The notes under the pieces are model-generated. The model was not told where the DNA came from and ran no database searches. It saw only the letters and a list, made by a program, of their open reading frames with translations. From Eledone cirrhosa (Eukaryota): a DNA stretch of 64,000 bases. Each line of letters opens with the position of its first letter. Within the stretch, counting starts at the first letter, position 1. The stretch spans positions 82,274,001 through 82,338,000 of the forward strand of contig OZ024742.1 in NCBI GenBank assembly GCA_964016885.1. The letters are read 5' to 3'. The position numbers and the translations under genes were made by a program. Shown one piece after another: positions 1 through 52,940 of this stretch.

Positions 1-1141
1 AGTTATACCATTTACGTGGTTTTGTCATTGCGTGTAATTGCTCTCAGCGATGCACATAATGACGTATTATTTTCGTTTTTTTCGTTCATTGCCAGAGAAC
101 GTCTCCATCAAGCACCTAATAGAATATTAGTCTATGACTTCATTTATCCCATAAATGTGGTTTTGTCTTTGCGTGTAATTGTTTTCATAGTGCCAAATAA
201 TGCCGTATTATCTTCATTTTTTTTTTCAGTTATTTGCCAGGGAACGTTTCACGAACCAACGTATCGTCTTCCTGTCTTCCGTCGGTTGCAACATTTTTTG
301 AAATATTTACTTCTGCGTTCACAGATTGACCTTTTTAGCTTTAGAAGATCCCGTTAAGGGTGAAAGCAGCGATTCTTTGCTTAAACTTTAATGTGTTATT
401 TTAATAAATATAAATATATATATATATATACACATACATACATGCATATATATATATATATATATATATATATATATATATACACAAATACTCTCTCTCT
501 CTCTCTCTCTCTCTCTCTCTCTCTCTCTCTCTCTCTCTCTCTCTCTCGCTCGCTCGCACACACACACACACAAACACGCGCACCTCGAAATAAAAAAGAA
601 ATCATTTCCGGAAATAAACACCTGCCAAATACTTGATTAAAAGCCATCACTAATACTATACTCTGTTTTTTCTAATTACCCAGCACAAAAGAACTGTGAC
701 AAAGAAAGAAACTAAAACACACATATACCACACTACAAAAAACAAACAAACACATATATATACAATATACCTTAAAACCTTTTTTTTCTTTACCCCAAAA
801 TTATTTCTCTAAGTTTTGATCGAATCACACTTACAATACGACACACACGCACACACGCCCCACCCCCCCATATATATATATATATATATGTATATGGACT
901 AAGCACATACACATATACAGAGAGATCGGTACCTTTGCAGACATACACACGTGTGTATATATATATATATATATATATATAAATTGGAATAAATGCTCTG
1001 AAATAGCGATACATATGTGAATATAGACATAGAATATTCGAAAATATTCTGTATGTTTATAATAAACATTTTGAAGACCTAATCGCTATAGAATAGAATA
1101 CGTCACGTATTACAATTAGATTCTCGATAAAAGCAAGGGAA

Positions 1142-1184
1142 GTAATCTACGCGTTTCATTCTCGTTAGAAATCATCAGGACTAC
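1142..1184 (-). ncRNA. Minimal type I hammerhead ribozyme (also at 1452-1494, 1762-1804, 2072-2114)
   Basis: Exact reverse complement of the motif at 2259-2301. Confidence 0.93.
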
Positions 1185-2258
1185 ATATCCAGTGCTTTTA
1201 TCGAGAATGACACAGCTAGAGACTTATAGAATACTTAGCTGTGTACAGGAACTGGTTTGAAAGAGCGGTTGCCGGTCCGGCAGAAATTAGAAATTGGAAT
1301 AAATGCTCTGAAATAGCGATACATATGTGAATATAGACATAGAATATTCGAAAATATTCTGTATGTTTATAATAAACATTTTGAAGACCTAATCGCTATA
1401 GAATAGAATACGTCACGTATTACAATTAGATTCTCGATAAAAGCAAGGGAAGTAATCTACGCGTTTCATTCTCGTTAGAAATCATCAGGACTACATATCC
1501 AGTGCTTTTATCGAGAATGACACAGCTAGAGACTTATAGAATACTTAGCTGTGTACAGGAACTGGTTTGAAAGAGCGGTTGCCGGTCCGGCAGAAATTAG
1601 AAATTGGAATAAATGCTCTGAAATAGCGATACATATGTGAATATAGACATAGAATATTCGAAAATATTCTGTATGTTTATAATAAACATTTTGAAGACCT
1701 AATCGCTATAGAATAGAATACGTCACGTATTACAATTAGATTCTCGATAAAAGCAAGGGAAGTAATCTACGCGTTTCATTCTCGTTAGAAATCATCAGGA
1801 CTACATATCCAGTGCTTTTATCGAGAATGACACAGCTAGAGACTTATAGAATACTTAGCTGTGTACAGGAACTGGTTTGAAAGAGCGGTTGCCGGTCCGG
1901 CAGAAATTAGAAATTGGAATAAATGCTCTGAAATAGCGATACATATGTGAATATAGACATAGAATATTCGAAAATATTCTGTATGTTTATAATAAACATT
2001 TTGAAGACCTAATCGCTATAGAATAGAATACGTCACGTATTACAATTAGATTCTCGATAAAAGCAAGGGAAGTAATCTACGCGTTTCATTCTCGTTAGAA
2101 ATCATCAGGACTACATATCCAGTGCTTTTATCGAGAATGACACAGCTAGAGACTTATAGAATACTTAGCTGTGTACAGGAACTGGTTTGAAAGAGCGGTT
2201 GCCGGTAAGTATTCTATAAGTCTCTAGCTGTGTCATTCTCGATAAAAGCACTGGATAT

Positions 2259-2301
2259 GTAGTCCTGATGATTTCTAACGAGAATGAAACGCGTAGATTA
2301 C
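2259..2301 (+). ncRNA. Minimal type I hammerhead ribozyme (also at 2569-2611, 2879-2921, 3189-3231)
   Basis: gtagtc-CTGATGA-t ttct aacg agaa t-GAAA-cgcg-TA-gattac: stem I gtagtc/gattac, stem II ttct/agaa, palindromic CGCG stem III, GUA cleavage triplet. Confidence 0.93.
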
Positions 2302-3363
2302 TTCCCTTGCTTTTATCGAGAATCTAATTGTAATACGTGACGTATTCTATTCTATAGCGATTAGGTCTTCAAAATGTTTATTATAAACATACAGAATATT
2401 TTCGAATATTCTATGTCTATATTCACATATGTATCGCTATTTCAGAGCATTTATTCCAATTTCTAATTTCTGCCGGACCGGCAACCGCTCTTTCAAACCA
2501 GTTCCTGTACACAGCTAAGTATTCTATAAGTCTCTAGCTGTGTCATTCTCGATAAAAGCACTGGATATGTAGTCCTGATGATTTCTAACGAGAATGAAAC
2601 GCGTAGATTACTTCCCTTGCTTTTATCGAGAATCTAATTGTAATACGTGACGTATTCTATTCTATAGCGATTAGGTCTTCAAAATGTTTATTATAAACAT
2701 ACAGAATATTTTCGAATATTCTATGTCTATATTCACATATGTATCGCTATTCCAGAGCATTTATTCCAATTTCTAATTTCTGCCGGACCGGCAACCGCTC
2801 TTTCAAACCAGTTCCTGTACACAGCTAAGTATTCTATAAGTCTCTAGCTGTGTCATTCTCGATAAAAGCACTGGATATGTAGTCCTGATGATTTCTAACG
2901 AGAATGAAACGCGTAGATTACTTCCCTTGCTTTTATCGAGAATCTAATTGTAATACGTGACGTATTCTATTCTATAGCGATTAGGTCTTCAAAATGTTTA
3001 TTATAAACATACAGAATATTTTCGAATATTCTATGTCTATATTCACATATGTATCGCTATTCCAGAGCATTTATTCCAATTTCTAATTTCTGCCGGACCG
3101 GCAACCGCTCTTTCAAACCAGTTCCTGTACACAGCTAAGTATTCTATAAGTCTCTAGCTGTGTCATTCTCGATAAAAGCACTGGATATGTAGTCCTGATG
3201 ATTTCTAACGAGAATGAAACGCGTAGATTACTTCCCTTGCTTTTATCGAGAATCTAATTGTAATACGTGACGTATTCTATTCTATAGCGATTAGGTCTTC
3301 AAAATGTTTATTATAAACATACAGAATATTTTCGAATATTCTATGTCTATATATATATATATA

Positions 3364-50619: not shown

Positions 50620-52065
50620 CTAGGAAGTTGCTCAATAACGAACATACAACAACACTCAATAACGAACATACCCTACTAGTAACCTTTCATGTCATCAATT
50701 TATATTCCAATATCCCACACAACCTAGGTATAGAGGCAATGCAATTCTGGATGGAAAATTTCCCTAGTGAACTCCCACAACTCATCCCTAAAGAATTTGT
50801 GTTGGAGGGACTCAAATTCATCTTGGAAAACAATTACTTCGAATTCAATGCCAAATACTACAGACAGAAATGTGGGACTGCCATGGGCACGAAAGTGGCC
50901 CACTCATACGCCAACCTAGTCATGGGATATTTGGAAACCATTCTCTACCGCAAAGTTCTAGAGGAATACGGCAACCACTTCTACCAACACATATAAAAGA
51001 ACTGCAAGAGATATCTGGACGAATGCTTCATCCTCTGGCATGAAAGTATAGATAGACAGTTTGAGTTTAAAACCCTTTCTGAATCGACTCAACACAAACT
51101 TACAATTCACAATGGATTAGAGCCATGAACAACTCCCTTTCCCCGACATCCTAATCAAGAAAACAAGCAACAAAATAGAATCAGACATATACTACAAACC
51201 CACGGACTCCAACCAATACCTTCATTCAACTCGTGCCATCCTAGACACACCAAAATGGCAATTCGTTATAATCTAGCCAGAAGGATCTGCACAATAGTTT
51301 CAGATAAACACACATGCTACATACGAATAGAAGAATTAAAAAGACACTTATCAGCAGAACATACCCACCATCCCTAATCACCAATGTAATCCAACGTGCC
51401 CTAAAACTATACAACCAGGAACTCAGACACCCCAAACCCAGGAATGAACCGCAAAGAAAACTCTACCATACATCTCCACACACAACCCCCTCAATGAGGC
51501 ATTCGACACCATCCTCCAGAACATTCCTTTACTAAAAAGAGACCCAAGAATGAACAAAATCCTCCAAACAAACGACATCATAAAGAGCAAAATCCAACCC
51601 AAATCCGTAAAAAAACATCCTCACACAAGCCAAAATACAACAAACCCTCACAATGAACCCTACAGTAACAAAATGCGGAAGGACCAACTGTGGCATATGC
51701 ATAAATATAATAGAAGGTTCAACATTCCATTTTAAACAAGGACAGCGTTTCACAGTTAATCACAACTTTACATGTGCATCTGAAAACTTTATCTATGTTT
51801 TGACCTGCTCAGGTTGTCAAGAGCACTACATAGGACAGACAAAAGACAACCTACGTCAACGAGTTACCGTCCATAAATCACAAATTAAAATAGAGTAATA
51901 CAGTAAGATTGCATTTAGTGAACATATCGCCAATTGTGCTCCAAATCAACATCCAAACTTAAAAATTTTCCCCATTTACAAATTCATACACAGCGCTACT
52001 TTCATCCAACGAACCAATAAGTAAACATATTTCATTAATAAATGTCAACCCCTACTTAATGCTGT
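50620..52065 (+). pseudogene. PLE RT + GIY-YIG, disrupted
   Basis: LVTFHVINLYSNIPH, GTAMGTKVAHSYANL, RYLDEC, DIYYKPTDS; KCGRTNCGIC linker; FTCASENFIYVLTCSGCQEHYIGQT..LRQRVTVH. Confidence 0.92.
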
Positions 52066-52477
52066 AAATATCGGACCAATCTAAAACTGCAACAAACAAT
52101 CAAACATTTACAAGAGTTACCCCCCTCACACCCTACAATAATCCTTTTTCTTAAATAAATTAAATATCATCCAGCAAGAATTGCTTCCCCCTGCATGGTA
52201 ACTCTCTAAAAACGGAAATCAAACCTCAGTCCACCATTTGCCTCCATCACGTAATCATGGATCAACTAAGCACTCTTGCTATATTAACACATTTTGATCT
52301 GCTTAACTTGGCTTGTAAATAACATTATTTTTTTATTCCACATTGAGTTTTTATGTTCTAAATTATGCACGTTTTTTTCCTCTTTCTTTTTTCTTTTCAC
52401 TTCATAAACCTTGTTTGTAAATAACATTATTCTTTCTGCACCTTCTGTTTAAAATGTGCGACACCACACTAATACAT

Positions 52478-52527
52478 TTCACTATCATTTGATAATGCAT
52501 AAAAATGCTGAAACCGGTAATAGACAA
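52478..52527 (+). ncRNA. pLTR hammerhead-like motif, U3-A8 variant
   Basis: ttcactat cat-TTGATAA-t gcat aaaa atgc t-GAAA-ccgg-TA-atagacaa. The stem I junction is non-canonical. Confidence 0.6.
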
Positions 52528-52940
52528 TAATTAGATATATAAATAGATAAATAAATGCCATTGTTAAATAATAAATAAATCACTAATACCTTAATACTGC
52601 ACACAAAGTAAAGTAAAACATTTCGTTTTAATCATTTTCTAACCCAGGAAAAAGAGAGAGAGAAAGAAGAAAGGAAAACAAATATTTTTCTTCCTAATAA
52701 TCGTCTCTTTCTCCCTGTTTTCATATATATATATATATATATATAGAGAGAGAGAGAGAGAGAGAGAGTGAGACATATATATATACATATATATATATAT
52801 ATATATAATATATATATATAGAGATATAGATATATACATATATATACATACATATATATATATATATATATATATATATATATATATATGTGAGACGTAA
52901 AATAAAAAAATTATAAAATTAACTTACTTACTAAAATTTC

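Follow-up and report, generated by a model that had tools for sequence, protein, structure and literature searches.

Which machinery copies the non-coding retrozymes of animals? The question is posed in compact form by a stretch of 64,000 nucleotides from the genome of Eledone cirrhosa (assembly GCA_964016885.1, contig OZ024742.1, positions 82,274,001 to 82,338,000; hereafter the window), in which tandem arrays with hammerhead ribozymes (HHRs) lie among Penelope-like elements (PLEs), coding for a reverse transcriptase (RT) and a GIY-YIG endonuclease. PLEs have been named a strong candidate for retrozyme mobilisation via circles (Cervera & De la Pena, 2020, PMC7229834), a later text repeats that retrozymes may rely on PLEs (PMC8969392), and the same argument has been made, with the mechanism left open, from co-occurrence and from homology to the pseudo-long terminal repeats (pLTRs) of PLEs (Li, Clavereau & Pollet, 2026, bioRxiv 10.64898/2026.07.22.740005). 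The idea of an autonomous element that mobilises a parasite in trans is already in print as a hypothesis (2020, 2026), and both the mobiliser of animal retrozymes and the way in which tandem, inverted and tailed PLE insertions arise are stated to be open (PMC7229834, PMC8557442, bioRxiv 10.64898/2026.07.22.740005).

An original prediction, made from the letters of the window, held that PLE RT/GIY-YIG mobilises the retrozymes in trans. The orientation of the arms, a one-sided tail and a young, intact PLE family now support this claim. We propose that retrozymes insert with a PLE-like structure (two arms, a TA-rich target, one short end and one tail) and are likely copied in trans by the PLE RT/GIY-YIG protein; that PLE machinery acts in trans on the arrays appears very likely from the sequences. 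New here are the junction evidence and a strict rule of short/tail pairing for known kinds of elements.

Short and Tail Ends Are Paired

The genome is AT-rich and comprises 3.0 Gb, and its element families were sampled via 185 stretches. HHR cores were located by pattern and folding, the sign of an arm is that of the HHR sense, and the outer ends of arms were called by alignment to family sites. A locus is termed resolved when it has two arms, each with its outer end at a family-fixed site.

Each family has two fixed 3' sites, and resolved two-armed loci use one per arm. In 68 non-coding and 29 coding resolved loci, one arm carries a tail extension of 26-73 nt and the other stops at the short site; short/short or tail/tail pairs were absent from these 97 loci.

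The pairing holds in every family. For array A (19 loci sampled), the sites lie at ~228 and ~254 in the unit and are paired in 14/14 resolved loci, three other two-armed loci being affected by a gap, a contig end or one end elsewhere. For array B, whose sites are 59 nt apart, all 25 resolved loci are paired (18 from the 24 two-armed loci among the first 40 consecutive B loci on C1, 6/11 further picked loci, and the window copy). The same is true for 8/8 D-like loci (seven resolved of 14 examined, plus element D of the window), for the single resolved locus of element C, and for 20/20 loci of a further family, E, which were selected for opposite-strand cores and not for end type; four of the E short ends stop 8-11 nt early. 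Among the coding elements, PLE-y, the name used here for the young, intact copies of the family of which PLE2 in the window is an old member, has a 54-nt tail and is paired in 14/14 loci (11 clean loci, one nested pair and two later ones, with three loci picked as known short/tail neighbours excluded). The PLE1 family has a 60-nt tail and is paired in 8/8 loci (seven among 20 stretches, plus the window copy), the PLE3 family in 6/6 (five among 15 loci, plus the window copy), and the window copy of PLE2 is paired as well.

What looked like a short/short pair of PLE-y at C1:150.24 Mb proved to be two insertions. Pattern counts for PLE-y (1,528 short ends and 463 tail ends) are no test of a 1:1 ratio, as the two patterns are unequal in length and strictness. 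Hairpins are predicted in the tails of B, C and PLE-y, and weak ones in A and D. At most start sites a few TA-like bases match the target. The 60-nt tail of the PLE1 family is close in length to the 59 nt of B.

A tail is a hallmark of PLEs, described as present 'often' or 'optionally' on one end (PMC8557442, PMC3846280). The one-sided tail is a sharper hallmark for trans-mobilisation than arm inversion alone.

Arms Face Outward Across the Genome

Arm orientation had been proposed as a check. The neighbour counts below come from the first 100 listed matches of each family and are thus samples rather than a full genome tally. Family B has 10,672 exact cores, and its opposite-strand neighbours within 1 kb were -/+ in 16 cases and +/- in none, i.e. 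with 3' ends outward in 16/16. A single +/- B pair within 2 kb, spaced 1.8 kb, consists of two separate insertions 1.2 kb apart, with other DNA between them (L025). Family E (341 exact cores) gave 23 -/+ pairs and no +/- pair within 2 kb; with the limit at 20 kb, the counts were 30 and 1. As a control we used a 29-nt pattern from the 3' region of a long interspersed nuclear element (LINE) with 20,007 copies, which gave two -/+ and three +/- pairs within 2 kb, and five of each within 5 kb. Among the 40 consecutive B loci, 24 were two-armed, all of them -/+, and of the 16 counted as single-armed one (L039) possibly has a very short second arm; 17/19 A loci were two-armed, again all -/+. Neither poly(A) nor a single LINE-type 3' end, which would have pointed to a LINE, was seen at the loci.

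Family E is apparently non-coding and at least 2 kb long, with a 3' HHR, a 68-nt tail and paired ends, and no tandem unit was seen (L141-L160, L093); many of its junctions lie immediately upstream of the HHR. It was considered as a coding partner of A on account of a similar helix II, and rejected: its 20 stretches yielded no PLE frame, and their long frames are LINE insertions.

Ribozyme Form and Candidate Driver

Arrays A and B fit the non-LTR retrozyme type. They consist of non-coding tandem units of a few hundred bp without long terminal repeats (LTRs), carry a canonical type I HHR with an intact core in consecutive units, and are dispersed and multicopy (10,672 exact cores for B, 18 loci at 92-100% identity for A). 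Array flanks, looked at for a large target-site duplication (TSD), consist of TA runs, and the same motif often recurs on either side of the insert. Over the A unit, contig depth in short-read run X19 was ~250,000 versus 30-70 in the unique flank (depth, not copy number); A may be far more abundant in the genome of this run than its 18 assembly loci.

The original prediction had assigned the same minimal HHR form to arrays and pLTRs (for the terms canonical and minimal, see PMC4209133). Folding contradicts this. In A, B and D, the HHR closes a long helix I, as canonical retrozyme HHRs do (folding z -5.9, -3.4 and -4.2), whereas the pLTR HHRs of PLE-y, PLE1 and PLE3 fold as minimal, with helix I not closed (z 0.15, -0.56 and 0.20), and only a short palindromic helix III is common to both. 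No homology was found between A, B, C or D and the pLTRs of PLE-y, PLE1 and PLE3 (z -1.2 to 1.7), a test that covers three pLTRs out of the PLE families among ~14,000 RT candidates. The PLE families (PLE2/PLE-y, PLE1, PLE3) have a pLTR or partial tandem with minimal HHR, an inverted 5'-truncated copy and a one-sided tail.

A PLE of active age, a further check on the prediction, is present in the form of PLE-y. This family has many intact 775-aa frames with RT followed by GIY-YIG; the protein matches Pfam GIY-YIG, with RVT_1 below the cut-off, and has 513 homologues. The frames differ at 0-1 of 2,328 nt between the arms of one locus and at 2-3 between the youngest loci, and PLE-y arrays are two-armed, with 3+2 units of a 4.2-kb unit. 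By sequence divergence its youth matches that of A, which makes PLE-y a young candidate driver. An outgroup RT query returned mostly PLE-y. The PLE3 family is old. The PLE1 family, with frames of up to 1,257 aa and copies 96.5-99% identical (L121-L140), is another PLE of fairly recent age, and a long insert separates its RT motifs; its 1,257-aa frame had no Pfam match. In the translations of PLE1 and PLE3, RT and GIY-YIG motifs were recognised by eye, as were the Neptune-type features of the PLEs (a CX2-5CxxC linker and a CCHH motif in the endonuclease), the clade label following the motif descriptions in PMC8557442. The nearest named homologues of the window PLE protein are from bivalves.

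The coding region of PLE-y is split into frames of ~500 aa and 775 aa (stop to stop) that overlap by 94 nt (L081:3283-4908 (-) and 1049-3376 (-)); an old two-frame copy lies at 44170-47700 of the window. A T-rich, slippery-type heptamer is found in the overlap in 32/32 occurrences, and the second frame has no ATG upstream of the first conserved motif, which suggests -1 frameshifting. No strong hairpin was predicted downstream of the heptamer.

One Haplotype per Locus, Probably Two Primings per Event

In A, 140 whole units from 12 loci contain 20 differences that are not shared by their locus. Relative to the window unit, each A locus has 1-7 differing positions, carried through both arms, in arrays that reach 25+3 and 14+15 units (up to 29 counted). 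Of the 20 B loci that could be measured (3/23 were left out because of too little overlap), 19 have arms closer to each other than the median of their distances to other loci, and in one the two values are equal; no other arm was closer than the partner arm in 11 loci. No locus with arms of two haplotypes was found among 20 B and 9 two-armed A loci. Thus, both arms of a locus carry one haplotype. Steady homogenisation is not the general rule, since old PLE arms diverge.

The 5' ends of the arms are scattered over the whole unit, and the distances between the two 5' ends are spread likewise. Among 30 loci tested, the short arm was nested in the tail arm in 16, the tail arm in the short arm in 6, and neither in the other in 8; a simple fold-back is excluded for the latter. 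Because short and tail ends are paired and 8/30 loci have no nested arm, we consider two RNA-templated primings per event likely. Junctions were alike in arrays and PLE-y, and their values were taken from near-identical loci, as the junction script mis-extends diverged ones.

An assembly fold-back artefact could be ruled out: old arms are 86-96% identical, the ends are asymmetric, and joints also occur in short-read contigs, where an independent run contained 13 other minus-to-plus joints of A. An empty site at locus A was not found in contigs of four runs, in which repeats were skipped and of which three barely covered the locus.

In other retrozymes, transcripts self-cleave and circularise. 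By analogy, array transcripts would do the same. A PLE protein, probably a dimer, would bind near two start sites on the RNA and nick both strands of the (TA)n target, and cDNA would be primed from each nicked 3' end, once at the proximal and once at the distal site. Each polymerase would then roll round the template for a random distance, with displacement, until the two cDNA ends are joined via 0-5 nt of microhomology or a short filler. Where one of the two primings aborts, a single-armed copy would result. That the template is a circular monomer seems to us rather probable, and the use of one RNA molecule for both primings is slightly favoured.

Twin priming had been predicted with the self-complementarity of (TA)n as its reason. 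The two primings are supported by the paired ends and the non-nested loci. TA self-complementarity is not needed, since inverted, one-tailed rotifer Penelope elements occur with 8-10 bp TSDs outside microsatellites (PMC3846280), and since purified PLE protein both cuts and extends the two strands of a target other than (TA)n (PMC11167929). TA symmetry may still help, because of the few TA-like bases at most start sites.

Several observations weigh against our reading. In the B sample, 16/40 loci are single-armed and 6/24 two-armed loci have one end elsewhere. Tail length varies by family (26-73 nt), and the arrays have no sequence link to the pLTRs of PLE-y, PLE1 and PLE3, so that the partner cannot be named from these. 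Gene conversion or a homogeneous linear multimer transcript might explain the shared haplotypes as well. Geometrically, 22/30 loci are compatible with fold-back; perfect palindrome junctions occur at two loci (L027, L047), and many E cores are 6-17 bp apart. The junctions of near-identical loci show 0-5 nt of microhomology or short fillers, not clearly above the chance mean of 0.75-0.8.

As a sub-case of our main claim, the two primings might take place on two sibling RNAs in one particle, such as monomers of one multimer transcript or a hammerhead dimer. We regard this as possible, if unlikely. Because both arms span the same stretch, their synthesis on a single molecule would demand strand displacement. 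Dimer formation is favoured by the palindromic helix III (PMC4209133), and siblings would share a haplotype, as the arms do. Sibling RNAs alone, however, leave the use of non-identical start sites in 97/97 loci unexplained, and no chimeric locus with two haplotypes was met in the 20 B and 9 A loci.

Less probable still is a PLE that copies the arrays by a single priming, after which the first cDNA folds back or primes itself, or an antisense template is used, to give the second arm, and the endonuclease trims one end during resolution, so that a tail stays on one side. Self-priming has been put forward to account for palindromic PLE junctions (PMC3846280), and resolution by the endonuclease to account for the tail (PMC8557442), and the palindromes at L027, L047 and many E junctions, the 16/30 loci with a nested short arm and the shared haplotypes would all agree. 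In contrast, the 8/30 loci with neither arm nested do not fit, the 6/30 with the tail arm nested in the short arm would demand a precise internal stop, the distances between the two 5' ends cover the whole unit, and tail boundaries in vitro are RT start sites (PMC11167929).

Very improbable, and largely refuted already, is growth in place, by which arrays would be pLTR leftovers or satellites that expanded through unequal exchange and tandem duplication, DNA repair at TA hairpins would have produced the inversions, and trans-mobilisation would play no part. Local amplification from a pLTR is one scenario of the 2026 preprint (bioRxiv 10.64898/2026.07.22.740005), and a few variants do repeat within an arm (units 2-3 of A in the window; two units four apart at C3:271 Mb), but thousands of dispersed loci, strict orientation, family-fixed paired ends, the missing homology to the three pLTRs and old arms that have diverged to 86-92% instead of being homogenised argue against it.

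We give equally little weight to copying by a young LINE, with retrozymes as parasites akin to short interspersed nuclear elements (SINEs) and L1-style twin-priming inversions. Twin priming of L1 yields one 3' end and non-overlapping arms. Although an intact 1,064-aa LINE frame (AP-endonuclease, RT and PHD) and 20,007 copies of its 29-nt pattern are present, this LINE lacks the two-armed signature and the -/+ pairing (2 vs 3 within 2 kb, as above), its flanks end by eye in a trinucleotide and not in TA, and the retrozyme loci, unlike SINEs that depend on a LINE, have two 3' ends, overlapping arms and TA ends. Rolling-circle DNA elements of the Helentron/DINE type were dropped, because the loci have random 5' ends and a 3' end on either outer side.

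On both sides of several inserts, a locus-specific flank motif plus (TA)n is often repeated many times with the same polarity (L054, L052, L036, L057, L038, L009, L083, L088, L100), either by telomerase-like re-copying of the target at insertion or by ordinary microsatellite slippage. The flanks of two loci (L024, L095) show short inverted duplications of flanking DNA (~29 and ~41 bp) across the insert.

Elements of the Window

By self-comparison and reading, seven elements of the window each consist of a minus arm followed by a plus arm in HHR sense, i.e. joined 5'-to-5' with 3' ends outward, as had been claimed. Rfam at its gathering score gave no HHR match in the window, and Pfam gave no match on its broken PLE frames.

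In array A, with a 310-bp unit and eight intact cores (4+4), the left arm (982-2206, -) has ~4 units, with a canonical type I HHR in each, and ends at the tail site (unit position ~254-256) into (TA)13. The right arm (2207-3347, +) has 3.7 units and ends at the short site (unit position ~220-228) into (TA)8, and the junction at 2206 has 1 nt of microhomology. Array B has a unit of ~500 bp and nine intact cores (3+6). Its left arm (11779-13618, -; 3.5 units) contains an internal TA run and ends at the short site, and its right arm (13619-16680, +; 5.9 units) ends with the 59-nt tail, which has a predicted hairpin, into TA.

The prediction had counted four HHR arrays. This stands for A and B with their intact cores; C and D are decayed relatives and not real HHR arrays. 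Element C is homologous to B (z 19.8), and its HHR core is broken, with a mutated GAAA box; its left arm (40692-41582, -) has 1.9 units of 466 bp and ends at the tail site, its right arm (41580-41637, +) is an HHR-free stretch of 59 bp with the short site in TA, and by eye the junction has 3 nt of microhomology. Element D is homologous to A (z 20.2) and has altered cores: the left arm (48473-48834, -) holds 1.1 units of ~310 bp and ends at the short site, and the right arm (48835-49220, +) holds 1.2 units with a U3-A8-type core and ends with a tail of ~27 nt.

The arms of the three window PLEs are 86-92% alike. In PLE1, the long arm (27910-30389, -) comprises a broken RT-GIY-YIG frame and a pLTR with minimal HHR (28069-28103). 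It stops at the short site, followed by 64 bp copied from inside the element, namely from its endonuclease region (27847-27910 = 28597-28660). The inverted arm (30389-30770, +) has a pLTR with minimal HHR (30521-30555) and the 60-nt tail of the family, and runs into (TA)8. Several short (~60-bp) inversions occupy the junction region (30173-30389), and together with the 64-bp copy they suggest template jumps. Most elements had been said to lie in (TA)n, this PLE least clearly; given the pairing of the 60-nt tail, its right end does lie in TA, and its left end has no TA run.

The inverted arm of PLE2 (42817-43758, -; 942 bp, 86% to the other arm) has its short end in (TA)6, and the main arm (43758-48260, +) consists of a 5' pLTR, a broken ORF1 and RT-GIY-YIG open reading frame (ORF), a 3' pLTR with minimal HHR at 48090-48118, and a tail. 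In PLE3, the inverted arm (49420-50538, -) ends with the family tail (an internal TA run plus ~35-40 nt), the main arm (50647-52724, +) has a 5'-truncated broken RT-GIY-YIG frame and a pLTR with a U3-A8-type core and its short end in TA, and a 72-bp inverted piece (50561-50632) lies at the junction. The PLE boundaries given earlier were too short: the right arm of PLE1 reaches 30770, and the left arm of PLE3 reaches ~49420, the TA run at 49460-49495 being internal to it.

Two arms are not a general rule. Besides the 16/40 single-armed B loci, the window contains two counter-examples between TA runs, a D-family monomer (30965-31244, -) and a PLE3-family pLTR (41677-42017, -). Further single-armed, HHR-bearing relics between TA runs lie at 7014-7366 (related to A/D), 52890-53152 and 53570-54026. 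Short head-to-head palindromes adjoin TA runs at 3360-3663, 6366-6789, 10680-10799, 39791-40029 (with HHR-core-like motifs on both strands) and 63086-63167, and probably represent other truncated families of PLEs or retrozymes. A LINE-type RT fragment (Pfam RVT_1) lies at 59316-60449 (-), and a weak tRNA-like match at 7563-7620 (-).

Relation to Known Systems and Significance

Metazoan non-LTR retrozymes (PMC7229834; bioRxiv 10.64898/2026.07.22.740005) resemble the arrays in being dispersed, non-coding tandem units of 310-500 bp, with one canonical type I HHR each, that occur with PLEs. The published descriptions, as far as available to us, differ in that they mention large TSDs, and not inverted arms, tails, junctions or (TA)n targeting; text searches of the 2020 and 2026 retrozyme papers likewise returned no wording on tails, junctions, orientation or inverted arms for retrozymes. 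Homology to pLTRs, the argument of the 2026 preprint, is absent here for the three pLTRs tested. Literature searches found no paper with the present junction evidence, and subscription papers (e.g. Evgen'ev & Arkhipova 2005) or supplements may hold more.

Endonuclease-positive (EN+) PLEs with a CX2-5CxxC linker (Neptune/Nematis; Craig et al. 2021, PMC8557442; Arkhipova et al. 2013, PMC3846280) have in common with the PLEs studied here an RT with C-terminal GIY-YIG, a minimal HHR in the pLTR, partial tandems, an inverted 5'-truncated copy, a one-sided tail and microsatellite targeting. Unlike them, the present elements have tails of 54-60 nt rather than the published 30-40, a tail on exactly one arm of every resolved locus rather than 'often' or 'optionally', and, in PLE-y, a coding region in two overlapping frames. 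Poseidon PAc of Anolis (Frangieh et al. 2024, PMC11167929) is similar in that its tail is bounded by two adjacent internal RT start sites, both strands of an AT-rich target are cut and extended, and a dimer is predicted. In vitro, however, PAc showed no difference in start site between strands and no target homology (PMC11167929), whereas here each arm takes one site of the pair, and the target is matched by a few TA-like bases per site. Among Chlamys PLEs, non-autonomous ones such as MRC1 (PMC8557442) are likewise non-coding, multicopy head-to-tail insertions attributed to PLEs, but these resemble their autonomous partner at the 3' end and their clade is mostly without HHRs (PMC8557442); A-D resemble none of the three tested partners.

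Since parasite and host element obey the same insertion rule at ~100 loci, the argument from co-occurrence becomes junction evidence. The loci provide exact, testable start sites on short RNAs, and a naturally intact, very young PLE family. The rule of one short end and one tail constrains the mechanism of PLEs and offers a way to recognise PLE-copied non-coding DNA, and an RT able to produce arms as long as 8 kb, with near-identical units, from a unit of 310 nt would be of interest by itself.

More broadly, and with slightly more doubt than confidence, every PLE insertion might be a coordinated double priming, in which a dimer on one circular RNA makes one cDNA per fixed site and per cut strand, and for which retrozymes have evolved the same sites independently. 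If so, retrozymes would be parasites made of ribozyme circles, defined by a structural signal only and hijacking PLEs without sequence kinship, and the short/tail pair would be a general fingerprint of PLE-mobilised DNA in any genome.

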